Shown: one piece after another, positions 5,614-33,044 of the stretch | How the letters are laid out: each line of letters begins with the position of its first letter | Position numbering within the stretch: the first letter of the stretch is position 1 | Origin: Patescibacteria group bacterium UBA5147 | GTDB lineage: Bacteria > Patescibacteriota > Saccharimonadia > UBA4664 | Assembly (NCBI GenBank): GCA_002415345.1 | Contig: DHXV01000001.1 | Coordinates: 33,059-97,058 of the forward strand | Direction of reading: 5' to 3' | Length of the DNA: 64,000 bases | Notes under the pieces: generated by a model | Told to the model about the DNA's origin: nothing | Database searches by the model: none | Seen by the model: the letters and a program-made list of their open reading frames with translations, nothing else | Translations under genes and position numbers: made by a program

Positions 5614-5868
5614 TTAACCGACCAGTTTGAGTTGATCGGCCAGCCAATCCTGGTCAAAGCCGACGACGCCGGCTACAGTTCCGTCAGCGTGGGTAATGGT
5701 AGTAAACGGAACACCCATCTGACCGGATAGTTTAACCATCTCGGCTGCGGCGGCTTCGTCTTCCTCGACATTTACGTCGATATATGGCACTTTATGCTCA
5801 TCCAAGAAGTTCTTCTCAGCCTTACAGTATGCGCACCAACTTGTTGAATAAATTTTTACGGTTGCCAT
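5614..5868 (-). CDS. glutaredoxin-like protein (NrdH/Grx family)
   Basis: 84 aa, YSTSWCAYCK CxxC thioredoxin-fold motif. Confidence 0.75.
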   Translation of the reverse strand: MATVKIYSTSWCAYCKAEKNFLDEHKVPYIDVNVEEDEAAAAEMVKLSGQMGVPFTTITHADGTVAGVVGFDQDWLADQLKLVG

Positions 5869-6791: not shown

Positions 6792-6835
6792 ACTACTTTT
6801 GAGTATACCCGAATATGGTAAAAACGTTAGCGCTG

Positions 6836-8173
6836 TTAAGGCTGACAGGTCGATACCGGACGCTCGCCGCCGGTGACTTGCTTCAACCAGGCGAGGGTGT
6901 CGTTCAAGCTTAATATCATGGTGTTGTAATGGGTCCCGTCATAGAGCTTCAACTGAACCGGTCCCGTGCTGGCATGACACATCCCCGGTATCGCCGACTC
7001 GGACTGGCGTGCGAGAACAACATTATCGTTGCGCCCCTGGTTAATCAGTTTGGCGCTGGAGGTAGCCTCGTTGCCGACCGAGTTCTTATCCAAATCCCTG
7101 GCCAGCTCCGGATAATCACTGGCAAAGGTGTCGGTGTTAATGGATGCCAGGAACTGGGGCGTGTAGACCGCGTTCGGATTATGTCCCCAGAACGCAATAT
7201 CCGAATCGATACAATGAGACAACACGTCTCCGGTCAGATTTTGATGGAAACGCGGTTGTAATATCCGTTCCAGCCCGTAGTCGGCTTTATAGTAATCGTG
7301 ATAACTGGTGAGAACGTAGGGTCCAATCCAATTCAGGGTCGAGCCGAATGCCACGTCCCCGATGGATTCCTTGACGCTCGTGACCGGCCCGAATCCAACG
7401 ACACCCTTTACCGTAACGTCCGGTGCGTAGGCCTCCGCGATCGTATCGGCCCAGAAGGCGGCGTGGCCGCCCTGCGAATACCCTCCCACCACCACTTGAC
7501 CCTCTTTGAGGTGGCCTTTGGTGTCAGGGAGGTATTTGATTGCCCGGATGGCATCAAGCAGCGCCCGGCCTTCCAGCTCGCCGTTGAGGTAATGATGGAT
7601 GCGACCGGGATCCCGCATACCCTCATAATCGGTAGTCACCGCCACGTAGCCTTGGCTTGCATACATCAGCATGTGGGAATCGTAGTTGCCCCAGTTGGCA
7701 ACTTTCGGATTCTCAAGCGACGGCGCACATTGGTCGCCGATGCCCGTGGTACCGGGACCAAAGGCAAATACTGGATACGACCTAGCACCAGTCGGAACGT
7801 ATGCCCGCCCGTACACCGTAAACAAAGTGCCGTCTAAATCGGATGAACGGTAGCGGAAGGTTATTTTTGTAACCCCGGACTTGGCGGGCAGAGTCGCGGC
7901 CCCGTAATTCTCGTGTGCCACTTCCTGAGTCTGCGTCAGGGAAAAGGTCTGCCTGGCATCAACGCCGAGCAACTGACCCGGAGCGGGTTTGATCGGAATC
8001 GGCGAAGAAATAACCGCAGGCACCGTACGGCCCCGCCGGACGTCATCCTGATGGATGAAGAAATACAGGAACGCACTGGTCACCAGCGCCAAGACAATAA
8101 AAGCTCCAACCGCTCCCCGATGGCTTCGCTGAGATTTGTCGTGGCGGTATGGTTTAAAAAACGGCTGGATCAC
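6836..8173 (-). CDS. secreted/membrane-anchored alpha/beta-hydrolase (lipase/esterase-like)
   Basis: 445 aa, N-terminal TM, GGYSQGG (GxSxG) nucleophile elbow. Confidence 0.65.
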   Translation of the reverse strand: MIQPFFKPYRHDKSQRSHRGAVGAFIVLALVTSAFLYFFIHQDDVRRGRTVPAVISSPIPIKPAPGQLLGVDARQTFSLTQTQEVAHENYGAATLPAKSGVTKITFRYRSSDLDGTLFTVYGRAYVPTGARSYPVFAFGPGTTGIGDQCAPSLENPKVANWGNYDSHMLMYASQGYVAVTTDYEGMRDPGRIHHYLNGELEGRALLDAIRAIKYLPDTKGHLKEGQVVVGGYSQGGHAAFWADTIAEAYAPDVTVKGVVGFGPVTSVKESIGDVAFGSTLNWIGPYVLTSYHDYYKADYGLERILQPRFHQNLTGDVLSHCIDSDIAFWGHNPNAVYTPQFLASINTDTFASDYPELARDLDKNSVGNEATSSAKLINQGRNDNVVLARQSESAIPGMCHASTGPVQLKLYDGTHYNTMILSLNDTLAWLKQVTGGERPVSTCQP

Positions 8174-8174
8174 G

Positions 8175-8660
8175 TTAAACCTGGCCCGTCTTAAAGGTCA
8201 TGATGTCCATCCGGACCCCATCTACAGGGTAGGCATCACACCACACAAAACCCTGGCGCTCGTAGTATCTCCGGTGATCATGGGTCGCCAGTGACACCTC
8301 GGTGGCCCCCAACTGACTTTGCATCCGCAGCATTCGACTGAGCAGAGTGAGGCCGGTGTTACGACCGCGGCGGCTTGGATCAACGAACAGCCAAAAAAGC
8401 TGGCCTTTGCCGTTCTTCGGCACACTGCCAATGGCGTACCCCACCAGTTCGCCGCCGTGATGTGCCGTCAAAATGATTCGCCGCGGATGAATAGCCGCCA
8501 GCAGCAGCTTGAGCGGCCGATGATTACGAATCACCTGATCCTGCTCAATCGCGGGGAAATAGGCGAAATGAGACCGCACGGCCGACACGAACATCCGGTG
8601 GAGAGCCGGAATATCACGCAGTTTAATGGGAATGATGATGGTTTTGTCCACGGGCACCAA
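8175..8660 (-). CDS. GNAT-family N-acetyltransferase
   Basis: 161 aa, acetyl-CoA-binding-like motif (..RRGRNTGLTLL..). Confidence 0.65.
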   Translation of the reverse strand: MVPVDKTIIIPIKLRDIPALHRMFVSAVRSHFAYFPAIEQDQVIRNHRPLKLLLAAIHPRRIILTAHHGGELVGYAIGSVPKNGKGQLFWLFVDPSRRGRNTGLTLLSRMLRMQSQLGATEVSLATHDHRRYYERQGFVWCDAYPVDGVRMDIMTFKTGQV

Positions 8661-8683
8661 GCGTTACCGAAATATCATATCAG

Positions 8684-9310
8684 TTAAGACCGCTTGAGGC
8701 GACCGGCGAAGACCTCCCGCAGATGCTTTAGTTTGGGATTTATAACCGCTTGGCAGTAGGCGCGCTCCGGGTGGGTACGGAAATAATTCTGATGGTACGG
8801 CTCGGCTTCATAAAAGGCGTCGAGCCGCTCAATTTCAGTAACCACCTCGGCGTCCCACAGTTGGGCTACTGCGTTACGGCTAGCCAGAGCCGCCTCCTTC
8901 TGGGATTCATTTTCGTACAGGATGATCGAACGGTACTCCGAGCCGACATCGTAGCCTTGCCGATTCCTCGTCGTCGGATTATGGATTGCCCAGAAGATGT
9001 CCAGGATATCGGCGTAACTGATGACGCGGGGATCGAAATGCACTTGAACGACTTCGGCATGACCTGTACTGCCGCCCAATACCTCCTTATAGCTGGGGTT
9101 CGGCACCTTCCCCCCGGCATAGCCGGAGACGACATGGTCCACTCCGGCAATTTCCTGATACGCCGCCTCCAAACACCAGAAGCAGCCGCCTCCGATGGTT
9201 GCAACCTGTAATGCCGTGTCAGCCATCGCTGTCCCCTTTGTGGATATTTTAGGAGCCGCTTGGGGAGCACACAAGGATAAGCGTTGCTTAGAGCTCTTCC
9301 TGCTTGTCAC
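8684..9310 (-). CDS. msrA: peptide-methionine (S)-S-oxide reductase
   Basis: GGGCFWCLEA active-site motif. Confidence 0.9.
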   Translation of the reverse strand: MTSRKSSKQRLSLCAPQAAPKISTKGTAMADTALQVATIGGGCFWCLEAAYQEIAGVDHVVSGYAGGKVPNPSYKEVLGGSTGHAEVVQVHFDPRVISYADILDIFWAIHNPTTRNRQGYDVGSEYRSIILYENESQKEAALASRNAVAQLWDAEVVTEIERLDAFYEAEPYHQNYFRTHPERAYCQAVINPKLKHLREVFAGRLKRS

Positions 9311-10859
9311 GCATGAAACCGACCCACTGCTGCACCAGCCTGAGCGACGTCTTAAGCGGAAATTCTATCGCCACGTCCAGCAGCCTCGTCACGATATTCG
9401 CCTTGGCATAGCGGTCAGACAGCCAATGCCCCACCCGCACAAACGGCGTCGACAGAAAATCGGCCAGCACCTGAATCAGGTTTTGCCGTTCCGGCAGCAT
9501 GCGCAGCTCGCCGGCGGCCTGGCGCAATCTCAACCCCAAGAAACTGACGGCCGAGAAGAACATAAAGAAGATAAATCCGTTCACCGGGTTGAACCCAAGG
9601 TAGCGAAGCAACCAAATGAGCAAGCCAAAGGACAACGTAAAGCCCAGCCCGTAAATACTCAGGAAGACCGTATTCAACGAGGGAGAAGTTACGCGGCGAC
9701 GTAGTTTATAGGAGATGGGAGGCTGATCGGAAGCGTAGATTATCCGGTCGACATATGAAGCGATAACTTCCGTATTCTGTCGCCCCGGAGCTCTGGCTTG
9801 TAGCCCGATAAGCATCATATACAAGGGAGGAAAGACAATATTGATGATGAGTGGCTGCCAGAGAATAAATCGGGATATGAACAGATCATATGGAACCTCA
9901 ATGCTGATTCCAATCAATATTTTGGTAAGGAAGATGAACATGATGGTTCGTATCAGCCTATCAGAAGCATTTTTTTCGACGAGCTGGTACTGCTGTTGAC
10001 AGATTGACCGCACTTTTCCCAGGGTTGTTTCTCGGGACAGCAATGTTCCGGAAGTGACAGTACTTGAAACCAGGAGTTCGCGCATAATGCGGATTGGAGC
10101 GGCGTACCGGTTTACGACCCGGCCTAGGCGGTTCGTCAGCGGAGACTGATATTGGACGTCGATAAGCTGGTTGGCGGCGATGAAGTCGCGCACCGGGAAA
10201 GCGTCAAGATCCTCAAGGTTGGCAGCCAGCGCATAAAACCTGGTGGTCGCCAGATCCGATTTGAAAATTGTCCGGTGAATTGCGCAGTATAAGGCAGTCT
10301 GATCGCGCTCGGGCTTACCGGCGCCTTCAACACTGGAAAAATCAATGGCTTTCAAATAATGATCGTACGCGAAGGAGATGAACGGGCTCAACCGTCGGCT
10401 CGTCGGCACGAGCGTATTTTCAAGCTGGACCGAGAGCAACTGCGTAATCCAACGCTTAAGTACCTTGGGCTGTTCCCCGCCGGTCTGACGGGCGGCATTA
10501 AAATAATTGCCATACTTGGCGCCGGTGTCGTCCATTGCGGCTAGCATCGTGATTGGCACGCTGTGGTTGGGGACGTAGCCCGCCTGAGTAAGCTCGTTAA
10601 TCAGTTCTGCAGCCGAAGTGCGGTAATTGCCAATGTCCACGTGCCGCGTCAGGAACCGCTCAATAGCCCCGCGCAGCAGCAGATGACGTTCACGGTATTC
10701 AGCCGCGTTTCGCAGCTGCTCATAGGCAAAATAAAAGTTACCTCCGACACCGTCGACATGGTAAACCGGACCCGCAGCGGGAGCTATGGCCTCTCCGGCG
10801 GACAATTGGTTTATAAGGTGACGGACGGCAGGAGTCAATTCAGTGGATGAAGAATGCAT
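9288..10859 (-). CDS. large membrane protein, function unknown
   Basis: 523-aa ORF with a soluble N-terminal half and a polytopic C-terminal half. No recognised motif. Confidence 0.5.
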   Translation of the reverse strand: MHSSSTELTPAVRHLINQLSAGEAIAPAAGPVYHVDGVGGNFYFAYEQLRNAAEYRERHLLLRGAIERFLTRHVDIGNYRTSAAELINELTQAGYVPNHSVPITMLAAMDDTGAKYGNYFNAARQTGGEQPKVLKRWITQLLSVQLENTLVPTSRRLSPFISFAYDHYLKAIDFSSVEGAGKPERDQTALYCAIHRTIFKSDLATTRFYALAANLEDLDAFPVRDFIAANQLIDVQYQSPLTNRLGRVVNRYAAPIRIMRELLVSSTVTSGTLLSRETTLGKVRSICQQQYQLVEKNASDRLIRTIMFIFLTKILIGISIEVPYDLFISRFILWQPLIINIVFPPLYMMLIGLQARAPGRQNTEVIASYVDRIIYASDQPPISYKLRRRVTSPSLNTVFLSIYGLGFTLSFGLLIWLLRYLGFNPVNGFIFFMFFSAVSFLGLRLRQAAGELRMLPERQNLIQVLADFLSTPFVRVGHWLSDRYAKANIVTRLLDVAIEFPLKTSLRLVQQWVGFMRDKQEEL

Positions 10860-10955: not shown

Positions 10956-11441
10956 TTAGTCTTGTTTGACACGTGTCTTCGGCGTGAAGGCCCGCAAGGA
11001 AAGGTGAGTCGTACTTGATTCATGAATCTTGGATTGCAAACGGTTTAATTCCGTCAACTCGTCATCAGTCAGAACATCCAAAATGGGCTGTAAGCGGGCC
11101 AGCTGGAAGGCCTTATACTTGCGATGACGAATCTTGCCCTCCTTACTCAGGCGCAAAGCAACCACACGACGATCCTGGTCGCTCGTTTGGCGGGACACCG
11201 TACCGTCTTTGACCAGCGCGTCAATCAGCTGAGTGGCGGCGCTCGGGGTAATATCAAGGGTAGTGGCAACATCCTTGACGCTGATTCCAGGGTTCGCGTT
11301 GACGATATGCATCACAATGGCTTGGGAGCGGGGAATGACTGCCCCGCTCATATCAGACTGGGAAGAAATAAGGGTGCGCCGCCAAATGTAGCGAACGTCC
11401 TCCATGACTTCCTCAACGAGTTTCTTACGATTAATTGACAT
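10956..11441 (-). CDS. MarR-family transcriptional regulator
   Basis: 161 aa with a winged HTH (..ISVKDVATTLDITPSAATQLIDALVKDG..RRVVALRLS..). Confidence 0.8.
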   Translation of the reverse strand: MSINRKKLVEEVMEDVRYIWRRTLISSQSDMSGAVIPRSQAIVMHIVNANPGISVKDVATTLDITPSAATQLIDALVKDGTVSRQTSDQDRRVVALRLSKEGKIRHRKYKAFQLARLQPILDVLTDDELTELNRLQSKIHESSTTHLSLRAFTPKTRVKQD

Positions 11442-11599
11442 TATTTCCTTTCGGTTGAGAGTCTAATTTAGCTATCTAATATATTAGTTACTTAATTAAT
11501 TTCTGTCAACAAACAAATCATCCGCTTGTTGTACTCGGGAGTCTCTTGGCTAAATTGTCCGGCTGTAACGTATCCAAGGTGTTCGAATTACCCAGCGAG

Positions 11600-12121
11600 T
11601 CAGCCCAACTTTAGCAAGTCGTCGAGGATTCCAGCGATCCGCCGGTTTGAATCCCGGAGCATTTCTTCCGCTTCTTTGAAGCTCGTGATGTCATGGTAGC
11701 AAACGACCACGAACTTTGGTTTGAGGCTGCGGCCAGTGATAGGGAACGCCTTTACGGTGAGCCAAAAATTTTCATTCTCCTGCGTTCCGACAAAATGCAT
11801 GACGCTTTCCGTTTCCTCATTGAATCGCAAAGCTCGACGGCCAGGCAGGTCCTCGACACCCATTAGGGCTCCGCTTTCATCAAAGAACATAAAACGGTCG
11901 GCTATGTCGGTTACCGACTGATGCATAAGCTGCTCCGCAGAGACGTAACGCATATTGTCGGATGCCAATTTATTGGCGTAGACAATGTCACCGGAGAGGT
12001 CGTAGACGGTAACTGCGTCAATCATGTTGCCCAGTATTTTTCGCCAATACCTACCGATAGCTACTTTTCCAGCAGACTGGCTCTCAGATATCCCCAACGA
12101 TGCTGATCCAATAGTTTCCAT
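11600..12121 (-). CDS. PAS-domain protein (sensor module only)
   Basis: 173 aa, PAS fold (..VTVYDLSGDIVYANK..). Confidence 0.65.
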   Translation of the reverse strand: METIGSASLGISESQSAGKVAIGRYWRKILGNMIDAVTVYDLSGDIVYANKLASDNMRYVSAEQLMHQSVTDIADRFMFFDESGALMGVEDLPGRRALRFNEETESVMHFVGTQENENFWLTVKAFPITGRSLKPKFVVVCYHDITSFKEAEEMLRDSNRRIAGILDDLLKLG

Positions 12122-12276
12122 AATACGGTAGACGCAAATTTATATTAGCATTCTAAAATACTTTAGAATTAATGTCAATAACATAATGTCTGGATAGTAG
12201 CTTTATTAAGCCTACATTTATGTATAAATTATCCCTCATCCACCTAATATGCGATCTGAATCAGAAACAGATCGGT

Positions 12277-13791
12277 CTATACGTAGCCCGGGAAGAAATC
12301 GACTTTGACGTTGTGCTCCGACACCCCTATCGCCTTTAGAACCGCCTGCATGGCCTTAACCATGGAATGCGGACCCGAAACATAAAACAGACGCTCACGG
12401 TAATCGGGGACCTCGGCCATAATCAGCTCAGGCGTTATAACACCGGCGTGCATATCGGCCGGCACTAGGGTATTCGGATCGGTTAGCGTATAGACGACTT
12501 TAGTCTGCAGTTTGGCCTGGGCGGCCGCAAATACGTCACCATAGGCCAATTCGGCCACGTTCCGCTCCGAGTACAGCAAGGTGACGTCTCTGGGATCATT
12601 AGTGTCGACCAAATATTTGATCATGCTCCTAAACGGCGTCACGCCAATGCCGCCGGCGATGAACGCGAGTTTGCGAGTGGGGTCTGTGGGCAGGACAAAG
12701 TCGCCGCCCAACTGCGCGGCGGCAAAGGGAGTGGTCGCCGTCATAGCCTGGAGCGCCTGTTTGAAGGTACTGCCCTGGGGATAGATTTTAATTCCCAGGC
12801 GTAAGGTCTGTTCGGTGGGCGAAGATGCCAGGGTGAAATAACGGCGACTCCCCCGCTCATCGGGCTTTTTATGAGGCAAAGTGAACTCCATGTACTGTCC
12901 CGGCTGATACGATATCGGCTTATCCAGGGCAAAGACAAAATCGTGGACATTCGGTCCCCAAGACAGGGTTTTGATAAGCCTTGGCAGCAGCTTAACTTTT
13001 GGGTTGACGACAAAGGCGTAGATATTGCTGGCTAGAAGCACCAGTTCGGGCGTGGAATATAGCGACAACAGATGGATCTGAGGCGGGAAAAGTAACCCAG
13101 CCAGTACCCCGTACCAGCGCTGATGATGTAACTGGGTTGGTGAGGTTAACGGCTCTGTCAGCATAACGAAGGCCAGGAAGAGCAAAGCAGACTCCAAAAA
13201 AGTTTTTTGAATAACGACAAAGATGTTGCCATGGGCTATTAGAGCGAATACGGCCGTTGCGGCGACTGCGGTCAGGACAAAGGTTGCCACCATCTGCCCG
13301 CGTCTGATTTTGCGGACCATCAGCACACCGCCGACTATAACCGCCGGGGCAAGTACCGCGCTTCCCACCCACCAACTGGCCGACTCGCCGGCGGCGGCTG
13401 CGGTAAGGGCCACTGCAACGGCGGCCGGGTTAAATAAATGGCGTCCCCGGATTGCCAGGATATACTTTGAAGCTATTGCCAGCCCGGCAGCGGCCGTCAG
13501 AAAGAGTAAATTTTGGGCCGAGGTCGACGGCGTGATAATCAACGCCAGGATTAGAGCTGTAATCAGTGACGATTCAGGGTTGCTTGGTACATTAAATATT
13601 GTTGCGAAAATACGGTTAGTCAGAACACTGACGCCTACCAGATAACCCGCGGATAGGGCTATTGCCAGCGGATTAAACGCTAGAAACCCCAGAGCGCTCA
13701 GCAGCATTGCGGCTCCCAACAGCCCCACTAAATAGTAGAGGAGCAAACGGTACATAGTTATGCGGTCAAGTCGACTATCGATAAAATTCAT
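12277..13791 (-). CDS. polytopic membrane protein fused to a ferredoxin-NADP-reductase-like FAD/NAD(P)-binding domain
   Basis: 504 aa. The N-terminal ~260 aa has six or more TM helices, including an RHLFNPA motif reminiscent of the NqrB/RnfD family. The C-terminal domain has RxYS-type FAD (RRYFTLAS) and GGIGVTP NAD(P) motifs. Confidence 0.65.
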   Translation of the reverse strand: MNFIDSRLDRITMYRLLLYYLVGLLGAAMLLSALGFLAFNPLAIALSAGYLVGVSVLTNRIFATIFNVPSNPESSLITALILALIITPSTSAQNLLFLTAAAGLAIASKYILAIRGRHLFNPAAVAVALTAAAAGESASWWVGSAVLAPAVIVGGVLMVRKIRRGQMVATFVLTAVAATAVFALIAHGNIFVVIQKTFLESALLFLAFVMLTEPLTSPTQLHHQRWYGVLAGLLFPPQIHLLSLYSTPELVLLASNIYAFVVNPKVKLLPRLIKTLSWGPNVHDFVFALDKPISYQPGQYMEFTLPHKKPDERGSRRYFTLASSPTEQTLRLGIKIYPQGSTFKQALQAMTATTPFAAAQLGGDFVLPTDPTRKLAFIAGGIGVTPFRSMIKYLVDTNDPRDVTLLYSERNVAELAYGDVFAAAQAKLQTKVVYTLTDPNTLVPADMHAGVITPELIMAEVPDYRERLFYVSGPHSMVKAMQAVLKAIGVSEHNVKVDFFPGYV

Positions 13792-14534
13792 CAGTTGTTC
13801 CTTACGTACTTGTCAAAGCCGCTGGTAAGCGTAGCTTGGCCGGCGCTGTCAATCATGTAGGCGTCCAAGCCTGGCAGTGACTCTATAAACTCTACGCCAC
13901 GTACACCCATAGCAAAAGCGGCCGTGGCAAAGCGGTCGGCCTCATATATATTCGGCCCGATAACCGTCAGCGACGCCACTTGTGATAATTGCGCCTTATC
14001 ATCAAAAGGATTATAAATATGTTCACCGCGAATATAGAGCCCGGAAGTGGCAATACCCTGCGTAGTCAGTGCCACCACTTTTACGATCTGGTGGCGGTCA
14101 AACGGGTTACGGATACCAATTTGCCATGGCTCGCGAGCCGCGTTTAGACCATTCACTTGGATATCACCGCCAGCTTCAACGTAAATATTTTCGCACCCCA
14201 AGCTAAGCAGGAGCTTGGCCGCCTTATCTATAGCCCAGCCTTTTACCAGGCCCGAAGGGTCAAACTTGCCTTGATGCCAAGCGTCAAAGTAACCGTTGGT
14301 GGCACCCGTCGTATCCCGGCACAATCGCACCACCTCCTGCATCTCGGGACTCCAGGCAGATTCCATAAAACCGGCGTTAATCCGCGACACTTCACTGGTT
14401 GGCTTGTAGGGGCTGTAGGCTTCATCCACGGCCGTAAAGTACGCGTAGGCTTTATTGAATATGTCCGGCGAAACCGCCTCATCTTCAATAATGAGAGTCA
14501 CCGGCATACCCATTAGCTGGCGGGTCTGTTTCAA
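13791..14534 (-). CDS. apbE: FAD:protein FMN transferase (ApbE family), apparently without signal peptide
   Basis: 247 aa. An MGMPVTLII motif near the N-terminus and overall ApbE family pattern. 4-nt overlaps with both neighbours. Confidence 0.75.
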   Translation of the reverse strand: MKQTRQLMGMPVTLIIEDEAVSPDIFNKAYAYFTAVDEAYSPYKPTSEVSRINAGFMESAWSPEMQEVVRLCRDTTGATNGYFDAWHQGKFDPSGLVKGWAIDKAAKLLLSLGCENIYVEAGGDIQVNGLNAAREPWQIGIRNPFDRHQIVKVVALTTQGIATSGLYIRGEHIYNPFDDKAQLSQVASLTVIGPNIYEADRFATAAFAMGVRGVEFIESLPGLDAYMIDSAGQATLTSGFDKYVRNN

Positions 14535-14956
14535 GCTGCTTTGGCGTTAGTTAACGCCGATGTGAGTGATTGAATGAACGCCTGACTAGTATCCGTGGCT
14601 CCGGAGACGCCGTCAACGTTGGCGCTCTGAGCCTGGATTGCCTCTTGCTTCAGGAATGGCATGGCCTGAGTGTTAATATGCATCGAGGTCATGCGGTCAT
14701 GGGGATATTGTAAAAAGACAACATCGGATATCTTACCGCCCTGTATCGTCACTTGGACCTGGATGTAGCCATAATAGGCATCAGCGGCCTGACCGGTATA
14801 CTGGCCGTCCTTATAGGCAACAACCGTGCCAACGGCAGCTGAGACCGGCGATTGAACCGGTGGCGGCGCAATTGCCGCTGACCCGGCCTGGCGCTGGTGA
14901 ACGCCGTACAGGATATAGCTGCCGATGACGAATGCAATGAGTAGAAATTTTTTCAT
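14531..14956 (-). CDS. exported FMN-binding domain protein (NqrC/RnfG/PplA-like)
   Basis: 141 aa. N-terminal signal anchor and FMN_bind domain with the DGVSGAT flavinylation motif (Thr acceptor for ApbE). Confidence 0.75.
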   Translation of the reverse strand: MKKFLLIAFVIGSYILYGVHQRQAGSAAIAPPPVQSPVSAAVGTVVAYKDGQYTGQAADAYYGYIQVQVTIQGGKISDVVFLQYPHDRMTSMHINTQAMPFLKQEAIQAQSANVDGVSGATDTSQAFIQSLTSALTNAKAA

Positions 14957-15036
14957 GACCCAAATGTACCAATCAAACCTTAGAATTAGATGAGAACTCC
15001 AGGGAGGTACTACGAGTCACTATTCAGGACCTGGTC

Positions 15037-16485
15037 CTACTGCTTCGAGCGTGGTTTACGCCATATGAGCTTATAGATACGCAGCTTTTCCGGCAGCTGA
15101 TTGACGAACGGGATGAAGGGGAAGGCCAGCAACAGGAGCAGGGATGTCCCAATGATGATGGCTCCGTCGCGGTCACCGTTGTCTTCATCTTTGGCTAGGA
15201 CCGTGTGGTTAAGGAGCCCGATGGGTGCCAGCCACCATGCGCCCGGTGTCGGGCTGCTAGCTTCCTCGCGGACCATGCCATATTGATCAGTCGTCATGTT
15301 AAGCTTGGTGGCAGTTTCGTCAGGTATGCCCGTATCAGCCAGGAATCTGACCACGTAGGTCGTTTGGTAGCCTGCGCCGTTGTTGTCTCGCAGCGCCGCT
15401 TCATACAGACCGCTTTTTGCCATTGTAGTAAGACTATCGACTACTGCGATGGCCTGGTTCCCCTTGGGGAGAACTTTGCTGACCTGATCACTGGTATAGA
15501 ACACAGTGGCGGCTTCAAGTTGGGTCTTTTGCACCTCGGCTGGCTGCGCCAGGAACAACTTCAATTGGTCGGGGGAAGACTGGGTAGCAATGAGTTGGTC
15601 GTAGGGAGTCTGGATGTAAACGGTCCGCGAATCAAACGTGTATGGAGCGATATTGTTTTTATAGGTCGCTGTGTCGGACGTACCGTCAAATTCTTTGAGC
15701 AGAGTCTGCGAAATCAGCGCGGGGTCATCCTTCGAAATCTTACTAATAGTCAGAGGTGATAAATAAGGGGAAGGAAACACGATCGCCAGTAGCGCTACAA
15801 GTGCAATGACCGTTCCGCCGCGCCAGAACAAGAGAGTGTGATTTGCCTTGACTACAGGATATGCATCAGCGGCCGGCGACGGCTTACTGATACCCAACAC
15901 ACGAACCAGAAAGTAATGGGCGACTATGAGAGCAATCAACGTCAACGGCAATACCGCGATGTGAATTCCCATGACCTGACCTGTGTTGAGGTTATTGAGC
16001 ACCCATCCTATTCCGCTGCCGTTATAAAGGTCGGCTCCCTGAAGGCTGCGGTATTGCGAAGAGAAATCGCCGCGGAGGACGTAGCCGAATTCGGCTTCAG
16101 CCAAGGCGAACAAAAACATGAAGACGCCCAACACCCAGGTGAACTTGCGAGCACCTTTGTATCCGGAAGTTAGGAACACTATCGTAAGATGCAGCAGGAT
16201 GAATACCACGAAAGCCTGGGTCGCCCACAGGTGGAAGCTGCGGAAGTACTGGCCAACCGAACTTGTAATCCACCAATGCGGACCTGCCATGGCCATGACG
16301 ATGCCGGTTATCAGCAACAAGAAGAATGATATGGCCGAAAGAAAACCGAGCGAATAGACGAACTTATTGGCAAACGAGGGAACGTCCCTGAGCATTAGGT
16401 TTTGGAGAGCGGTGCGTATCGGTCTGGACGAAGGTGTATTTTGATCCATAGTTCCTATCCTTGGCGACCGGCGAGCTACGCTCAC
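15037..16485 (-). CDS. cytochrome b6-type di-haem membrane protein with extended C-terminal domain
   Basis: 482 aa. Helix pairs carry H-x13-H (FHLWATQAFVVFILLH) and H-x14-H (HIAVLPLTLIALIVAH) bis-His haem ligands, typical of cytochrome b6/QcrB. Confidence 0.65.
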   Translation of the reverse strand: MSVARRSPRIGTMDQNTPSSRPIRTALQNLMLRDVPSFANKFVYSLGFLSAISFFLLLITGIVMAMAGPHWWITSSVGQYFRSFHLWATQAFVVFILLHLTIVFLTSGYKGARKFTWVLGVFMFLFALAEAEFGYVLRGDFSSQYRSLQGADLYNGSGIGWVLNNLNTGQVMGIHIAVLPLTLIALIVAHYFLVRVLGISKPSPAADAYPVVKANHTLLFWRGGTVIALVALLAIVFPSPYLSPLTISKISKDDPALISQTLLKEFDGTSDTATYKNNIAPYTFDSRTVYIQTPYDQLIATQSSPDQLKLFLAQPAEVQKTQLEAATVFYTSDQVSKVLPKGNQAIAVVDSLTTMAKSGLYEAALRDNNGAGYQTTYVVRFLADTGIPDETATKLNMTTDQYGMVREEASSPTPGAWWLAPIGLLNHTVLAKDEDNGDRDGAIIIGTSLLLLLAFPFIPFVNQLPEKLRIYKLIWRKPRSKQ

Positions 16486-22028: not shown

Positions 22029-22195
22029 AGCTACATTATATCACATACAACGTCATTCATTATCAAGGCTGCTCAAGTATTTTTACAGCCAAAGTGTTCA
22101 AAATGAAATTCGCAATTTTTGTAGGCGTATAGTAAGCATAGGGGTTATACCCAAATTCAATTAACAGCTCAAAGCTTTCATTGAGGAGTCTTTCC

Positions 22196-23398
22196 ATGAA
22201 ACGTGTAGTCGTGGTCGGCGCAAACTTTGCAGGGGCAACCGCAGCTCTTGAAATAAAACGCAAACTCAAAAAAAATGTCGAAGTCACGGTTATTGATCGA
22301 ATGGAGAATTCGCTATACTTCCCTTCTCTCATCTGGGTGCCAACCGGGCGCCGTGAAGTAAGTCAGGTTCAGGTGCCTCGCAAGCCCGTGTTCGACAAAC
22401 GAGGCGTCAAATTCGTAGTCGACACGGCCATAAGCGTTGACCCGGACAAACAAGAAGTTGTCACCGAGTACGGCACATACCCGTACGATCAGCTCGTTAT
22501 TGCAACCGGACCAAAGGTTAACCGTGATATTGCCCAGGGTGTACGCGAGCACAGTTGTTATATCGGTTCGGTTGACGGTGCTCTTGATGCCCGTGCCAAA
22601 CTGGAAGAGTTCAAGAAGCACCCCGGCCCGATTGTAATCGGCGCCACCCAAAAAGCCAGCTGTATGGGGGCGGCCTATGAATTCTTGTTCAACGTGGAGA
22701 AATGGCTGCGCGAGCAAGGGATTCGCAAGCAGGTCGAGTTGTACTGGGTTACGCCGGAACCGTACCTGGGGCACTTCGGAATAGACGGCATGCCATTAGG
22801 CGAGTTTTACTTACGCAAATTTATGGAAGTGTTCAACATCCACTACCGCACCGAGGTAGGCATACAGGAAGTAACGGCTGACGCGGTCACATTAAGCACG
22901 GGCGAGAAGCTTGCCAGTCGATTTACCATGCTCATGGTACCGTTTACCGGCGTTGACTTTGTCACTAACTCACCCAAGCTGGAGACGCCGGAAAACCATT
23001 TCCTGGCCATTAAAGCGAGCTACCAACACTTAAAGTACCTAAACGTTTGGGGCGCGGGGCTGGCCGTAGACGTCAAACCGCCCTTTACCCCTGGCAAGGT
23101 ACCCTTCGGCGTGCCGAAGACGGGCTACCCAAGTGACAAAACAGGCAAAATCGTGGCTACTAACGTCGTCAAGGCACTGAGTGGGAAGACAAACTTCGCT
23201 GAAAAGCCATGGGGCAAGATCGCCGGGCTCTGCGTTATGGATGCGGGTAAAAAAGAAGTCCTTATCGTCAGTAACACGTTGTTCAAACCGCGTATATTCG
23301 CCGTGATGATTCCAAATGTATTCAATGATTTTTCCAAATTATCCCTGGAGAAGTATTTCCTTTGGAAACTTAAAAACGGTTACTCGTTCTTGCCATAA
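22196..23398 (+). CDS. FAD-dependent pyridine-nucleotide-disulfide oxidoreductase (sulfide:quinone oxidoreductase / NDH-2-like)
   Basis: VVVVGANFAGATAA Rossmann motif. The start is ATG 22196 with a GAGGAG RBS (22184-22189) rather than the track's TTG 22181. Confidence 0.7.
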   Translation: MKRVVVVGANFAGATAALEIKRKLKKNVEVTVIDRMENSLYFPSLIWVPTGRREVSQVQVPRKPVFDKRGVKFVVDTAISVDPDKQEVVTEYGTYPYDQLVIATGPKVNRDIAQGVREHSCYIGSVDGALDARAKLEEFKKHPGPIVIGATQKASCMGAAYEFLFNVEKWLREQGIRKQVELYWVTPEPYLGHFGIDGMPLGEFYLRKFMEVFNIHYRTEVGIQEVTADAVTLSTGEKLASRFTMLMVPFTGVDFVTNSPKLETPENHFLAIKASYQHLKYLNVWGAGLAVDVKPPFTPGKVPFGVPKTGYPSDKTGKIVATNVVKALSGKTNFAEKPWGKIAGLCVMDAGKKEVLIVSNTLFKPRIFAVMIPNVFNDFSKLSLEKYFLWKLKNGYSFLP

Positions 23399-25067: not shown

Positions 25068-25943
25068 ATGCCACGCCTTCCAACTCCAGGACAAGATGAC
25101 GGTACATGGGGATCCATCCTTAACGACTACCTGGTCCAGGCCCATCGGGCCAACGGATCCCTCCGGGCAAACAGTGTTGACTCCAGTGCGATCGTCGCCG
25201 GCAGTGTCGCCGAATCCCAACTTGACTCCGCCCTGCAGACGAAAGTTAACGCTCTCGCGGGCGCAACCGGACCAACCGGCCCCGCCGGAGCCGACTCGAC
25301 CGTACCGGGCCCGGCGGGAGCCACGGGAGCGACCGGCAGCGCTGGTGTCGCTGGAGCGACGGGTGCTACCGGTGCCGTCGGTGCGACCGGTCCAATCGGC
25401 GCCACGGGTGCCATTGGAGCGACCGGTCCCGCCGGAGCCGATTCGACCGTGCCTGGTCCGGCGGGTGCCACTGGCCCAACCGGTGCCACGGGAGCCGCAG
25501 GGGCAACCGGAGCGGCCGGAGCCACGGGAGCTCAGGGTGCAGTCGGCCCCGCCGGTGCGACCGGGGCGACTGGCCCGACCGGAGCGACTGGAGCAACCGG
25601 TAACGCGGGCTCGGTGTACAGTATTGTCGGTCCGGTTACTGTCGGCACCGGCATGCATCGACTCTACAATGACTCCGGTTTAACCAGAACTATCTCCAAG
25701 GTCCGTGCTTCCGTCGGCACCGCGCCGACCGGGGCCAGCCTCATCGTGGACGTTCTCAACGGTGGCACCACTATTTTTACTACTTCGGGCAACCGGCCGA
25801 CGGTTGCCATCAACGGCAACACGGCCACGGGCATTCCCGACATTACCAGCTGGGCCGACGGCACCTATCTGACCGTCAACATCACTCAGGTCGGTTCCAC
25901 GGCAGCCGGCGCCGACCTAACCGTCTCCGTTAACGCAAACTGA
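25068..25943 (+). CDS. collagen-like triple-helix repeat protein (tail-fibre-like)
   Basis: 291 aa with 39 G-X-Y triplets ([10 protein letters not shown]...), no signal peptide, and a globular C-terminal domain. TTGACA/TATAAT-like promoter in the AT-rich 24.9-25.06 kb gap. Confidence 0.8.
25260..25610 (+). repeat. collagen-like G-X-Y coding repeat (GAT/GPT/GPA triplets, 117 aa)
   Basis: Periodic ggN-gcN-acN nucleotide repeat, which accounts for the many spurious antisense ORFs here. Confidence 0.85.
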
Positions 25944-25955
25944 AAGGACTCTATT

Positions 25956-26954
25956 ATGGCATTACTCTTTATGGACGGCTTCGATGTCAACGATCTAGCG
26001 ACAAAGGGCTGGGTGGGCGGCTTGGATCACTACGCCACGGGCCGTTTCGGCGGCAAGGCCGCCGTGCCAGGCCAGAACACCATCCTCAAGAAGACAATCA
26101 CCGCATCGGCCAAGGTCATCGTCGGGGGTGCTTGGTTTGTCGACACCATGCTCGACGCCAACCAGTCAATGTTGATGTTCTGGGGTGATGCAGGTGCTAC
26201 CGTGCATCTTGCGCTCCGTGCCTACGCCAACGGCTCCTTCAAGCTGTACCTCGGTGATGCTGGCACCCTACTTGCCACGAGCGCCACTGGTCTGTACGTC
26301 CCCAACATATGGCGATACTTAGAAATGTCAGCGACAATCGCTGACGCTGGTGGCCGAGTGACAGTCAAAATCGACGGCAGTACCATCATCGACTTCACCG
26401 GTGACACCAAGAACGGTGGCACTAACACCACCATCGACACGGTTGGCTTCGGCAATAACGGCACCTTCCAGGCGTACGGCAACTGGGATGACCTATACGT
26501 CTGCAATGACAGCGGCTCGGCAAATAACGCCTTTCTAGGTGACGTGCGAGTGCAGACTCTGTACCCCACTGGGGCCGGTTCATCTACGCAGTTCACCCCG
26601 ACTGGTGTCGCGAACAACTGGGACAATGTCAACGACACTCCCTACTCAACTGCCACTTATAACGCTGATTCCGTTCCCGGGCATCGAGACACCTACGCGA
26701 TGGCTGACCTGGTTGCTGGCACCGGTACTGTCTTCGGGGTGCAAGACAACATCCTGGCACTGAAATCAGATGCCGGGGCTGCATCCATCAAGGCGGCGAT
26801 CAAGAGTGGCGGTACGGTTTACTACGACTCCGCGCTTACTTTGAGTGCATCTGCGACTGAATCGACAGCTCTGCGTGAAGTGGACCCAGCCACCTCGGCT
26901 GCCTGGACACCAGCTAACGTGAACTCTCTCGAGTTCGGCGCGGAGATCGTCTGA
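25956..26954 (+). CDS. hypothetical beta-rich protein (tail-fibre / lectin-like), unknown function
   Basis: 332 aa, Gly/Thr/Asn-rich beta-sandwich-like composition. No signal peptide. Tightly packed behind the collagen-like gene. Confidence 0.55.
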   Translation: MALLFMDGFDVNDLATKGWVGGLDHYATGRFGGKAAVPGQNTILKKTITASAKVIVGGAWFVDTMLDANQSMLMFWGDAGATVHLALRAYANGSFKLYLGDAGTLLATSATGLYVPNIWRYLEMSATIADAGGRVTVKIDGSTIIDFTGDTKNGGTNTTIDTVGFGNNGTFQAYGNWDDLYVCNDSGSANNAFLGDVRVQTLYPTGAGSSTQFTPTGVANNWDNVNDTPYSTATYNADSVPGHRDTYAMADLVAGTGTVFGVQDNILALKSDAGAASIKAAIKSGGTVYYDSALTLSASATESTALREVDPATSAAWTPANVNSLEFGAEIV

Positions 26955-27820
26955 TGGCTGGACTATACCCGGATGTACCCGACCATCGCATGGCGTTGGA
27001 CCAAGACGGCAGCGCGGCATTCAATCTTAACGGAACACTATCCACCACTACTCAGTTAACTGCTGGCCAGGTCACCGCCTTTAACGATGAAACCGCCGGT
27101 AACGTGCAATATACGGCGTCTGACGGCTTTCAATATCTTTGCGTGATATTCCCGGAGTTGCGTGATGTCACTAATGTCTATGTGGCAGTGAACACCGGTA
27201 ACCAGGCCGGTGGAGCTACGAGTTGTTCGGTTGAAAAATCCACAGACACCACGAATGGTATCAACGGAACGTGGGCACAAATCAAGGCATCCTACGGGCC
27301 ACCAACAAATATCGACACAACTTGGCGTACCGCAATCCAACCCGTATCGTCATCACTAGCGACGAGGGCCATCCGCATAAAAGTATCGGTTATCTTCTCT
27401 CACCTATTCCTCGATACGTTTCATATTTATGGAACAATCTCATCCGGACAGAACCCAGACCGTCTCGCTCTGTGGCACCCGACCAGTGACATCCAAGTTG
27501 GAGCAGCCTACTTTGACTGGGGCAACGCACTCCGCGGAACGACTGCTGACCGTACCTTCAGGGTGAAAAACCTCAGTGCTACGCTCTCGGCAAACACAAT
27601 AACCTGCTCGGTAGATGCTCTCTCTGACACGACTCCGACCGTGGTCGGCCAGCATACCTTGTCAGCGGACGGTACGACCTTCGCAGCCACGGCCAGTGCC
27701 GGGACGCTCGCTCCGGGAGCAATTTCCGGGGTCATGACAATACGTCGAACAACATTGAGTACTGCCGTATTGTCCCTCTGGGCAATTCGAGTTCATGCTG
27801 CTGCTACGTCGTGGTCGTAG
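26954..27820 (+). CDS. hypothetical beta-rich protein, unknown function
   Basis: 288 aa. Its start overlaps the upstream stop (TGATGG). Thr/Ser-rich. Confidence 0.55.
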   Translation: MAGLYPDVPDHRMALDQDGSAAFNLNGTLSTTTQLTAGQVTAFNDETAGNVQYTASDGFQYLCVIFPELRDVTNVYVAVNTGNQAGGATSCSVEKSTDTTNGINGTWAQIKASYGPPTNIDTTWRTAIQPVSSSLATRAIRIKVSVIFSHLFLDTFHIYGTISSGQNPDRLALWHPTSDIQVGAAYFDWGNALRGTTADRTFRVKNLSATLSANTITCSVDALSDTTPTVVGQHTLSADGTTFAATASAGTLAPGAISGVMTIRRTTLSTAVLSLWAIRVHAAATSWS

Positions 27821-29262
27821 GGGACGCCTGTGAATACGGGTATTTGGATGTAGGCGTTTCGCTAACGGTTGCTTCGAATGCTACTGAATACGGCTATTTG
27901 GATGGCGGCATCTTGCCAACGGTTGTCCCGATCGCGACCGAATATGTCTATATAAATGTCGTCACAAATTCTCTGCTGGTTGAGGCTTACGTCGAGGCAC
28001 TGGCGGTTCCGACGGCAACGCCGCGCAACCTGGTAGAGTCCTACCTCGAGGCACTGGCGGTTCCGACGGTCACGCCGCGTAACTTGGTCGAGTCCTACCT
28101 CGAGGTATTAACACCGTCGTACGCAGCACAAAATGATCTCAGTCGCGATTCAAGAATCGCCGCCCTAACCGGAAATATGCTATGGCTTCGCGCCAAGGAC
28201 AATGCCAGCGGAAACGTCTCGACCTGGCCTGATCAATCGGGTCTCGTCCATAACGGTTTTGCGTCCGGTGCGACGCCGACACTGGACGGGTATTCGACCC
28301 CACTTGGCGGGAAGTCAGTCCGGTTCGGCGGCGCTGGGAGCTTCCGATGTTCGGTGGCCGGGGGTGCTATCGCCACCGCCTCTAGCGCAGTAGGCGGAGA
28401 ACCCGCGACAAACGCCATCGATGGAGGTTTAACGAACCGCTTCACGACCAACGGCATCAAGACCGGCTGGCTCTGCCTCCAGCTGCCGACCGCGCGGGTG
28501 GTGACCTCCTACGCCATTGCGCGGCGCGATGACCTCCCAACTCGCAACGTCAAGGACTGGACCTTTGAGGGCTCGAACGACGGGTCGGCGTGGACCACCC
28601 TGGAGACTCGGACCGGCGTGACCTGGCCGACGGTTGGCGAAGTTAAATCCTTCACCTTTGCCAATGTCACCGCCTACCTGTACTACCGGATTAATTTCAG
28701 CGATAACAACGGCGACCCTACTTATACCAGCATCGCCGAGATCGGTCTCGAGCACTACATGAACGGCGTGGCGGCGGCCGAGATCTGGGCGGTCGTCAAG
28801 GCGAATACCACCGGTGCCAGCGGCCTCTGGTCCTTTAATGATCGCAGTAATAACCGGGCCTTTTCCTACTACCCCTTCCCGAACGTCGGCAACTCCGTCT
28901 ACGAATCCTTCGGCGTAAATAATGACTCCGGCACTAAAATGGCTGTGTACCCCGATGTCATCAGTTGGCACATCTACCGCGTAGTTATGGATGGCAGCAA
29001 TATCACCTCATACGTGGACGGTGTCGCGATTGGCAGCCATACGGTTGCCGCGGCCGGTGGAATTAACTGGGGTATGGTGCCGCTGATCGGACAGACCGGG
29101 GCCGGCAACAACCTGGACGCCTTCTTCCAGGGCAATCTGGCCGAAGTTTTGGTGCGCTCGCAAATTTCCACTGCCCTTGAGGCTGGCGATATCACGAACT
29201 ACCTACGGACAGAACACTTTACCGTCCTGCCACCGTTCCAGGGCTGGGGCCTGCCGCTCTAA
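27811..29262 (+). CDS. F5/8-type-C (discoidin) plus LamG/ConA-like lectin-domain protein with N-terminal 18-aa tandem repeats
   Basis: 483 aa. A discoidin-like segment (NAIDGGLTNRFTT..WLCLQLP..WTFEGSNDGSAWT) is followed by a ConA/LamG-like domain (..GNLAEVLVRSQISTALEAGDITNYL). Confidence 0.7.
   Translation: MVVGDACEYGYLDVGVSLTVASNATEYGYLDGGILPTVVPIATEYVYINVVTNSLLVEAYVEALAVPTATPRNLVESYLEALAVPTVTPRNLVESYLEVLTPSYAAQNDLSRDSRIAALTGNMLWLRAKDNASGNVSTWPDQSGLVHNGFASGATPTLDGYSTPLGGKSVRFGGAGSFRCSVAGGAIATASSAVGGEPATNAIDGGLTNRFTTNGIKTGWLCLQLPTARVVTSYAIARRDDLPTRNVKDWTFEGSNDGSAWTTLETRTGVTWPTVGEVKSFTFANVTAYLYYRINFSDNNGDPTYTSIAEIGLEHYMNGVAAAEIWAVVKANTTGASGLWSFNDRSNNRAFSYYPFPNVGNSVYESFGVNNDSGTKMAVYPDVISWHIYRVVMDGSNITSYVDGVAIGSHTVAAAGGINWGMVPLIGQTGAGNNLDAFFQGNLAEVLVRSQISTALEAGDITNYLRTEHFTVLPPFQGWGLPL
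27831..28107 (+). repeat. two families of 54-bp (18-codon) tandem repeats, about 2.4 copies each
   Basis: gaatacggNtatttggatg... units at 27831, 27885 and 27939. ctggtNgagNcNtacNtcgaggcactggcggttccgacggNNacgccgcgNaac units at 27976, 28030 and 28084 (LVESYLEALAVPTxTPRN). Confidence 0.7.
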
Positions 29263-32747: not shown

Positions 32748-33035
32748 TTAGCCGAGTTTGGCAAGAATTATAGCCTCGACGTGTTCCGGCGAGATGGCGC
32801 CGAATTGTCGGCTGTCGGTTGAGGCCTCGTTGTTGTCGCCTTGGAGCCACAGACGGCCGTCGGACTCAATCCGGATGACGCGCTTAACCAGCGGTTTTCC
32901 GAATTGAGCCACGACCACCGAGCCGTTGCGCGGTCTCCCCCACCGATTTCCGACGAGGACGTCCCCGGTTTTGTAGGTTGGCAGCATGCTGTCTCCGGAT
33001 ACGCGGTACAGGCCGAGCGGCCATCGGAGCTTCAT
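32748..33035 (-). CDS. sodX: Ni-SOD maturation endopeptidase SodX (S26/S24 signal-peptidase family)
   Basis: 95 aa with SGDSMLPT (Ser nucleophile) and KRV (Lys base). It lies immediately downstream of sodN, as in actinobacteria. Confidence 0.7.
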   Translation of the reverse strand: MKLRWPLGLYRVSGDSMLPTYKTGDVLVGNRWGRPRNGSVVVAQFGKPLVKRVIRIESDGRLWLQGDNNEASTDSRQFGAISPEHVEAIILAKLG

Positions 33036-33044
33036 GGAAATTAC

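Follow-up and report, generated by a model that had tools for sequence, protein, structure and literature searches.

The minus strand at positions 12277–16485 of a 64,000-nucleotide window from the genome of Patescibacteria group bacterium UBA5147 (contig DHXV01000001.1), a member of the Saccharimonadia, carries four open reading frames (ORFs). In order of transcription, these code for a cytochrome b6-like membrane protein, an FMN_bind subunit, an ApbE-family flavin transferase, and an NqrB/RnfD-like membrane domain fused to a ferredoxin-NADP reductase (FNR)-like domain. Our favoured reading, to which we assign a probability of about 0.7, is that the last three genes constitute a stand-alone flavin conduit, and that the first gene provides a redox partner that is facultative, not obligatory, and specific to Saccharimonadia. 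The core of this system is already known. The only new elements are the association with the cytochrome b, possibly a new accessory of a known kind of system, and an ApbE protein that lacks an export signal.

All four genes are genuine, as judged from the homologues of the two proteins searched (hundreds each for the fusion protein and the cytochrome b-like protein) and from the synteny of the three-gene core in ~34 other loci. The operon proteins have their closest named relatives in Candidatus Saccharimonadia/Saccharimonadales and in organisms labelled 'Patescibacteria group'. An earlier examination of the DNA, made without database searches (the sequence-only reading), had described four co-directional genes, and an ORF check finds each of them. 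Its list of components, namely a cytochrome b, an FMN_bind protein with a DGVSGAT motif, an ApbE, and a polytopic domain fused to an FNR-like domain, is likewise borne out by Pfam matches and motifs. The '4-nt overlaps or short gaps' proposed for the junctions are roughly right. The cytochrome b and FMN_bind genes are separated by an 80-nt gap (14957–15036), the FMN_bind and ApbE genes overlap by 4 nt (TTGA), and the ApbE and fusion genes overlap by 1 nt (TGATG). A sequence scan found no terminator-like site between the operon genes, including in the 80-nt gap. The 3ˊ end of the operon is set by the strong sigma-70-like promoter (TTGACA-17-TAGAAT, 12150–12178, minus strand) that precedes the next gene, which encodes a PAS protein.

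The three-gene flavin module

The fusion gene (12277–13791, minus strand) joins an NqrB/RnfD-like membrane domain (residues ~1–268, 12988–13791) to an FNR/NqrF-like domain for binding of FAD and NAD(P)H (residues ~273–504 plus the stop codon, 12277–12975). The membrane domain matches PF03116 (NQR2_RnfD_RnfE; 37.0 bits against a cut-off of 27.7, residues 147–234) as well as the RnfD protein of structure 8ahx. The C-terminal domain matches PF00175 (NAD_binding_1; 45.8 bits against a cut-off of 22, residues 377–482) and PF00970 (FAD_binding_6; 21.6 bits against 21.1), carries RRYFT and GGIGVTP motifs, and resembles flavohaemoglobin reductase and NqrF among NCBIfam and PDB entries. The pattern of charged loops predicts ~10 transmembrane (TM) helices with both termini inside. 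With its C-terminus inside, the protein would hold the FNR domain in the cytoplasm and expose a shortened loop on the outer face. This loop is short because, relative to E. coli RsxD in the family alignment, the ~80-residue periplasmic loop bearing DGISQAT (T187) has been deleted. The fusion protein contains no [ST]G[AS][ST] flavinylation motif. A degenerate site in the RnfD-like domain, G-E-S-A-S, was considered and rejected, since it aligns to AGAGWQW of RsxD and the true flavin loop is deleted. Cysteine is absent from the whole fusion protein and also from the cytochrome b-like protein, so neither can carry an Fe-S cluster or a c-type haem.

The NqrC/RnfG-like FMN_bind subunit (14531–14956, minus strand; 141 amino acids; Pfam FMN_bind E=2.7e-10) begins with MKK and a hydrophobic TM anchor, followed by a Pro/Ser/Ala-rich linker and a single FMN-binding domain, and it has no lipobox cysteine. 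Its DGVSGAT sequence (residues 115–121, 14594–14614, minus strand) corresponds to the flavinylation motif as defined in the ApbE literature (PMC12052999), with T121 as the predicted FMN acceptor. Among 38 orthologues, the MKK start and TM anchor are kept in nearly all and the [ST]GAT core in most, and the upstream Asp of the motif is often Asn or Gln. The Lys and Arg residues around the anchor of the orthologues (typically two before and zero to four after) are not strongly asymmetric. The Pro/Ser/Thr-rich linkers that follow the anchor favour an outward-facing FMN domain, and we infer that this domain is located outside.

The third gene (13791–14534, minus strand; 247 amino acids) encodes an ApbE by fold and family signature (PF02424, 135 bits, E=4.6e-39), in which the motifs ATSG...HI.NP and EAD..ATA are legible, and the protein is predicted to act as an FAD:protein FMN transferase. 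It starts at a TTG codon with an in-frame stop four codons upstream, and a scan of its sequence revealed no signal peptide, lipobox, or hydrophobic segment. The sequence-only reading had remarked on this oddity, which proves to be general. In all ~37 orthologues associated with the module, ApbE is leaderless and begins with MKxT..MGMP, which is the first strand of the ApbE fold. A signal peptide hidden behind an upstream start, or a fusion to FMN_bind, was considered and rejected for these 37 loci, because an in-frame stop lies 0–8 codons upstream in most of them and the upstream stretch is non-hydrophobic elsewhere. By contrast, the ApbE enzymes of Nqr, Rnf, and FLEET systems are placed outside the cytosol by a signal peptide or lipobox. 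We found no statement on a module-wide absence of the ApbE signal peptide in PMC8238504, PMC11334425, or PMC6031116.

Together, the FMN_bind, ApbE, and fusion genes are a stand-alone 'NQR/RNF-like' flavinylation-associated transmembrane electron-transfer system, a class that has been catalogued previously. We place them in this class rather than in flavin-based extracellular electron transfer (FLEET) because the polytopic domain is NqrB/RnfD-like (PF03116). Méheust et al. (2021) described the class as a protein with an NqrB/RnfD N-terminal part and an NqrF-type NAD-binding C-terminal part, encoded near ApbE and FMN_bind, and proposed a one-way flow of electrons, with NAD(P)H as the source and an extracytosolic FMN-binding domain as the recipient (PMC8238504). 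Huang et al. (2024) presented an AlphaFold-multimer model of the two-subunit complex of Ktedonobacter racemifer with the FMN subunit outside, in which the Thr that is flavinylated in NqrB/RnfD is missing from the membrane domain, and the covalent FMN of the partner comes close to what appears to be a site for non-covalent flavin within that domain (PMC11334425). Both studies report the class in the Candidate Phyla Radiation (CPR) (PMC8238504; PMC11334425), and Starr et al. (2018) had been the first to comment on an NqrF/NqrB fusion protein, from a Saccharibacterium in soil (PMC6031116). The sequence-only reading had arrived at the same logic, in which a cytoplasmic NAD(P)H-oxidising flavoprotein feeds electrons through the membrane to an exported FMN protein flavinylated by ApbE, and this agrees with the published proposal (PMC8238504; PMC11334425).

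The locus in the window shares the three genes, their architectures, and the loss of the NqrB/RnfD flavinylation site with this class. PF03116 at the N-terminus and PF00175 at the C-terminus are found in one protein, an anchored FMN_bind and an ApbE are encoded directly upstream (within five genes), and alignment to RsxD shows the flavinylated Thr of NqrB/RnfD to be missing from the fusion. The taxa also agree, since the class is reported from CPR and the loci collected here include Chloroflexota, the phylum of the modelled K. racemifer. What differs is the cytochrome b6-like gene 80 nt upstream; the term 'cytochrome b' has zero occurrences in PMC8238504 and PMC11334425. The protein noted by Starr et al. 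was reported with an Fe-S domain, whereas the fusion protein here is devoid of cysteine (PMC6031116). No paper that combines Saccharibacteria with ApbE was found in the literature searched.

A relationship to the canonical Na+-NQR and Rnf complexes is evident in the homologous NqrB/RnfD, NqrC/RnfG, and NqrF-type FAD/NAD modules, including an NqrC/RnfG-type subunit that is flavinylated by ApbE. However, NqrA/D/E and RnfA/B/C/E were not found here, Fe-S centres are absent, and the loop with the flavinylated Thr is deleted. Searches with the E. coli Rsx proteins (tblastn) gave no homologue of RnfA/B/C/E/G in the window or in 125 related loci, and only RsxD found a match, which was the fusion protein. 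A motif scan of the real ORFs of the window was likewise negative for Fe-S motifs, Rieske proteins, and CxxCH. The sequence-only reading had named membership in a known Rnf/Nqr complex as an objection to its proposal. This objection holds in part, in that the cluster is derived from the Rnf/Nqr family, but it stands alone as a two-subunit system. In addition, electrons in the canonical complexes follow a U-shaped path, in contrast to the one-way path of the published NQR/RNF-like model.

The sequence-only reading had also drawn a parallel to the FLEET pathway of Listeria, and this parallel reduces to an analogy. As outlined in PMC12153355, which cites Light et al. (2018), the Listeria set comprises Ndh2, DmkA/B, EetA/B, FmnA, FmnB, and PplA. 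Both systems would pass electrons from NADH to a membrane-tethered, outward-facing protein flavinylated by an ApbE-type enzyme. In the system described here, however, an NqrB/RnfD-like domain provides the passage through the membrane and no quinone needs to take part. The two also differ in their flavin transferases, since FmnB works outside the cytosol and the ApbE of the module has no leader. No FLEET-specific protein is encoded in the operon. The PplA model NF041941 reaches 18 bits where the cut-off is 325 and matches in the motif region only, and none of the operon proteins matched Ndh2, EetA/EetB, DmkA/B, or FmnA in Pfam and NCBIfam.

Conservation of the module was surveyed in 41 loci, taken from one genome per species with flanks of 8–10 kb per locus. 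The order FMN_bind-ApbE-fusion is kept in ~34 of these, which belong to Saccharimonadia, Microgenomates (Levy-, Gottesman-, and Blackburnbacteria), and Chloroflexota (Ktedonobacteraceae, Chloroflexia, and Thermomicrobiales). Genes for a response regulator and a sensor histidine kinase form the commonest pair directly upstream of FMN_bind (locus L006, 5017–6716, and ~12–14 other loci). This pair is not a redox system, and its position suggests that the module is under two-component control in those loci. The window instead has genes for a PAS-only protein (11600–12121) and a MarR regulator (10956–11441) after the operon. The survey of neighbours found no conserved iron transporter or outside reductase next to the module.

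Two variations on the theme were seen among the surveyed loci. One Saccharimonadales metagenome-assembled genome (L010) contains two complete FMN_bind-ApbE-fusion modules in tandem (6796–9503 and 11365–13934) that are 51–55% identical to those of the window. In L004 (14986–17316) and L005 (293–2614), a second leaderless ApbE paralogue, 41–43% identical, lies beside a separate FNR-like gene whose product is 24–25% identical to the FNR domain of the fusion. This pair is not present in the window, and may represent a second, cytoplasmic flavinylation pair in close relatives.

The predicted dihaem cytochrome b-like protein

The first gene encodes a cytochrome b6-like membrane protein predicted to hold two haems. 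Its maximal ORF extends to a GTG codon at 16485, and we favour the ATG at 16449 as the start (15037–16449, minus strand), because an AAGGA Shine-Dalgarno sequence lies upstream and the resulting length of 470 amino acids agrees with that of homologues (~460–469). Pfam detects Cytochrom_B_N_2 (E=1.8e-13) and Cytochrome_B (E=1.6e-8) but not the C-terminal domain PF00032. The best NCBIfam matches are ExtP-type and b6-type cytochromes, all far under the family cut-offs. The sequence-only reading had proposed two pairs of haem ligands, H-x13-H and H-x14-H, and had named their loss on alignment as a possible objection. In the numbering of the 482-residue maximal ORF, these are H85 (16231–16233) and H99 (16189–16191) in helix B and H175 (15961–15963) and H190 (15916–15918) in helix D (all on the minus strand), a spacing of the b6/Firmicute type. 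When aligned with cytochrome b6 of Chlamydomonas (1q90_B), all four fall on its haem ligands, and they are invariant in 60 of 60 homologues in the family alignment. The two bis-His sites on helices B and D are the predicted haem-binding core of the cytochrome b/b6 type.

Helices A–E, which are homologous to cytochrome b/b6/QcrB, are followed by an all-helical domain of ~200 amino acids and a final TM helix. An AlphaFold2 model of the whole protein (predicted local distance difference test score, pLDDT, of 75) found only cytochrome b proteins of bc1/bcc complexes in a Foldseek search, the best being actinobacterial QcrB and bc1 cytochrome b. The helical domain (residues ~246–442, 15160–15750, minus strand) has no Pfam family. 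When modelled alone it gives a pLDDT of 76, with 98 residues at 90 or above, and Foldseek found no PDB fold for it (best E=1.2). The topology of cytochrome b6 and the positive-inside rule together suggest that it faces outward. Its family is tiny, since a set of 1.84 billion proteins contains just 26 representatives of it at the 50% identity level. A cytochrome b N-terminal domain was also found by Pfam scanning in four of six near-full-length matches. Informative fusions of the 'Rosetta-stone' type were sought and discarded, as only the cytochrome b N-terminus co-occurs with the helical domain; one protein of 982 amino acids that has the domain shows a weak, uninformative beta-propeller match. 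The cytochrome b-like proteins are a small, Saccharimonadia-specific family with a novel C-terminal domain.

Further invariant elements are found in this family. An acidic loop, D-x-D-N-G-D-R-D-G (residues ~430–440, within 15037–15200, minus strand), sits just before the last TM helix and resembles the NxDxDG calcium-binding motif. A PGAWWLAPIGLLNH stretch is also invariant. The confidence of the AlphaFold2 model is low for both elements.

Compared with the cytochrome b6/QcrB of b6f and bc(c) complexes, the protein has the same helices A–E, the same four bis-His ligands, and the b6-type spacing. It differs in lacking the PF00032 domain, in the unrelated helical domain that forms its C-terminal region, and, relative to b6f, in having no cysteine for attachment of haem cn. 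The window has no Rieske protein, cytochrome c/f, or subunit IV, and our scans uphold the earlier statement that Rieske, cytochrome c, and terminal (haem-copper) oxidase genes are absent from it. Other flavinylation-associated cytochromes, of the PepSY-like, MsrQ-like, and DUF4405 kinds (PMC11334425), are similar in that a dihaem bis-His TM cytochrome is encoded beside apbE and a flavinylated protein. Those cytochromes belong to other families (the DUF4405 match here is weak, at 21 bits against a threshold of 26.7), and the operon described here already has a separate flavin route across the membrane.

Evidence that the cytochrome b is linked to the module comes from gene neighbourhoods. It adjoins FMN_bind in the same direction in the clade of the window (loci L001–L004) and again, with a 75-bp gap, in L083, where the cytochrome b is 52% identical. 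In L059 the two genes point away from each other (divergent) and are accompanied by ApbE and the end of the fusion gene, and in L111 they are divergent with one gene in between. The adjacency therefore recurs in cytochrome b lineages that are only 52–61% identical, and the loci whose cytochrome b is closest to that of L059 and L083 (60–72% identical) do not have it. In two further lineages, cytochrome b and the module are on one contig, more than 10 kb apart. By a rough estimate, which is not a computed statistic, adjacency within two genes would arise by chance at ~0.4% per lineage for a genome of ~1000 genes, and four separate contexts among ~53 dereplicated loci would be far above this level. 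Recurrent adjacency to FMN_bind in different orientations suggests a facultative partnership, and we give a functional link between the cytochrome b and the module about even odds.

Electron path and competing explanations

In the favoured reading, the FNR/NqrF-like domain with its FAD would take electrons from NAD(P)H on the cytoplasmic side, and these electrons would cross the membrane through the fused NqrB/RnfD-like domain. A non-covalent flavin is presumed to serve in this step because the membrane domain has no haem, Fe-S cluster, or covalent flavin site. Electrons would then reach the covalent FMN, attached by ApbE to Thr121 of the anchored FMN_bind protein at the outer face, and from there some acceptor outside or in the membrane. 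In the lineage of the window, the cytochrome b is probably co-transcribed with the module and would most simply receive, at its haem pair, the electrons of the outer FMN, which would allow their return to the inner face along a U-shaped path like that of Nqr. Flow the other way, with quinol as the source of electrons and the flavoprotein as their recipient as in FLEET, is possible. The path from NAD(P)H over an intramembrane flavin to the outer FMN is drawn from homology to Nqr and from the published model, and the interaction with cytochrome b is a proposal; the domain identities, the conserved ligands and motifs, the synteny, the loss of the RnfD flavin loop, and the absence of Fe-S centres and c-type haem are observed.

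Several findings weigh against this reading. No biochemically characterised member of the NQR/RNF-like class was found in the literature searched, where the electron path is a model. ApbE is predicted to be cytoplasmic in every module and yet its sole candidate substrate is predicted to face outward, so either flavinylation of FMN_bind precedes its export or the topology has been assumed wrongly. With electrons already on the outer side, there is no evident need for a dihaem TM cytochrome. All genes between 8.7 and 17.8 kb of the window are co-directional, which makes the adjacency of cytochrome b and module by itself weak evidence. Of the 31 dereplicated cytochrome b loci that have 700 bp or more of sequence on each side, 25 have no gene of the module in the vicinity. 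Conversely, no cytochrome b gene occurs within 8 kb of the modules of Chloroflexota and Microgenomates, where the module works without this cytochrome.

These last points lend themselves to the strongest alternative, in which only the three-gene module is functional as such and the cytochrome b is an unrelated neighbour with its own promoter and function. We regard this as a real though lesser prospect. The sequence-only reading had treated the cytochrome b as an integral 'membrane haem carrier', a role that does not survive in that form, since the gene adjoins the module in a minority of lineages only. Across relatives of the proposed four-gene set, the three-gene core is widely syntenic, but a cytochrome b gene lies upstream in only four of the 41 module loci (L001–L004), which are the closest relatives, with fusion proteins at least 75% identical. 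Most of the cytochrome b homologues collected from metagenomes and long contigs stand alone, amid neighbours that vary, which argues that the protein is not an obligatory component of the module. In 83 loci the cytochrome b has no conserved redox neighbours, only lineage-specific housekeeping genes. The small size of the C-terminal domain family is also compatible with an independent function, as are the AT-rich 78-nt spacer with a Shine-Dalgarno sequence before the cytochrome b gene and the 80-nt gap behind it. Against these points stand the lack of a terminator-like site in that gap and the recurrence of the FMN_bind adjacency in varied orientations and in diverged lineages whose nearest relatives lack it.

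A FLEET-like route is an unlikely second alternative. In this scheme, the cytochrome b would be a carrier, perhaps oxidising scavenged or host quinol, and the flavoprotein would reduce Fe(III), flavins, or host quinones and so dispose of reductant. The scheme has the shared logic of ApbE-type flavinylation of an anchored FMN_bind protein fed from NAD(P)H in its favour, and flavin-based extracellular electron transfer has already been proposed for CPR from FmnB matches (PMC12153355). Some NQR/RNF-like clusters adjoin VIT1 iron transporters (PMC8238504). A link to quinones might be seen in two further genes. About 6 kb from the operon, on the other strand, a Pyr_redox_2 flavoprotein (22181–23398, plus strand) is possibly a quinone-reducing enzyme resembling sulfide:quinone reductase (SQR) or NDH-2, its best match being type III SQR at 119 bits, far below the cut-off of 525. 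In one other lineage (L130, 11394–12305), the cytochrome b homologue is followed, after 28 bp, by a gene for a UbiE-like/class I SAM methyltransferase, which hints weakly at quinones. However, the low PplA score and the failure to detect EetA/EetB, DmkA, or FmnA among the operon proteins speak against a FLEET pathway, as does the fusion protein, which already gives a quinone-independent path from NAD(P)H to the outer FMN. The module also has no conserved iron transporter or outside reductase beside it.

More doubtful still is a minimal NAD(P)H:quinone reductase that faces the cytoplasm, in which FMN_bind is flavinylated, stays inside, and relays electrons from the FNR domain through the NqrB-like domain to scavenged quinone, with the cytochrome b handling quinol. 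Such an arrangement would account for the leaderless ApbE of ~37 modules, with stop codons closing the upstream frame in most, and the lack of strong asymmetry in the Lys/Arg counts around the FMN_bind anchor also speaks for it. Cytoplasmic ApbE enzymes that serve cytoplasmic substrates are known, for example in Klebsiella pneumoniae (PMC12052999). That enzyme likewise has no signal peptide, but its substrate is a soluble cytoplasmic fumarate reductase, whereas the sole candidate substrate here is membrane-anchored and predicted to face outward (PMC12052999). The hydrophobic N-terminus after MKK and the Pro/Ser/Thr-rich linkers are typical of outward tethered domains, and the positive-inside pattern puts the short replacement of the RnfD loop on the outer face. 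Both NqrC and RnfG are periplasmic. The published AlphaFold-multimer model also has the subunit outside (PMC11334425).

An elaboration of the favoured reading can be given only a slim chance. Conduit and dihaem cytochrome b in Saccharimonadia might form a minimal Nqr-like, U-shaped respiratory loop, in which electrons go out to the FMN and come back over haems bp and bn to scavenged quinone or another inner acceptor, with possible ion translocation by the NqrB-like domain, the outward helical domain as a docking site, and flavinylation in the cytoplasm before export. Least probable by a wide measure is a fragment of a canonical Rnf or Na+-NQR complex with the other subunits elsewhere in the genome, since, for all the homology of the membrane domain to RnfD/NqrB, of FMN_bind to RnfG/NqrC, and of the NAD domain to NqrF, the RnfD-like domain is fused to FNR and has lost its flavinylation loop, neither Fe-S motifs (in the window) nor RnfA/B/C/E/G (in the window or the 125 loci) were found, and the published class consists of two subunits only (PMC11334425).

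Surrounding genes and implications for Saccharimonadia

Several other genes of the window bear on the lifestyle of the organism. A nickel superoxide dismutase gene, sodN (TIGR02753, 147 bits), and the small ORF after it for an S26-like peptidase, probably the SodX maturation protease, occupy 32748–33488 on the minus strand. The window further includes genes for MsrA (8684–9310) and a glutaredoxin (5614–5868). Together, sodN, MsrA, and glutaredoxin suggest that the organism lives in contact with oxygen and is not strictly fermentative and anoxic, and the nickel superoxide dismutase along with the SQR/NDH-2-like flavoprotein hints at an oxic habitat and possibly at the use of quinones.

Some features are of less certain relevance. 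A protein of 523 amino acids (9288–10859, minus strand) with four C-terminal TM segments matches no Pfam or NCBIfam family, and homologues 35–37% identical to it are encoded on the opposite strand within 4–6 kb of the module in L002 and L003. Four consecutive ORFs of 288–483 amino acids with unusual N-termini (25068–29262, plus strand) may encode surface or phage-tail-fibre-like proteins. A near-consensus sigma-70-type promoter (TTGACA-17-TAATAT, 11481–11509, minus strand) precedes the MarR gene. Apart from this strong site and the one before the PAS gene, the promoter scan was overall not significant; the two sites indicate that canonical promoter hexamers are in use by this CPR organism. No FMN riboswitch or other riboswitch was found in the window.

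In most descriptions, CPR bacteria, or Patescibacteria, live by fermentation and have no electron-transport chains. The NQR/RNF-like module is among the few widespread membrane redox devices of this group. Its leaderless ApbE, found module-wide, challenges either the assumed outward topology or the assumed site of flavinylation, and flavinylation before export, if true, would remove the need for FAD export. Should the cytochrome b be only a neighbour, the locus would be one more example of a catalogued system. If instead the U-shaped loop were to exist, it would represent a previously unrecognised and possibly energy-conserving electron-transport chain in epibionts with reduced genomes. More generally, the recurrent though non-obligatory association with the cytochrome b could point to the partner still missing from the module in Saccharimonadia, as acceptor or donor of its electrons.

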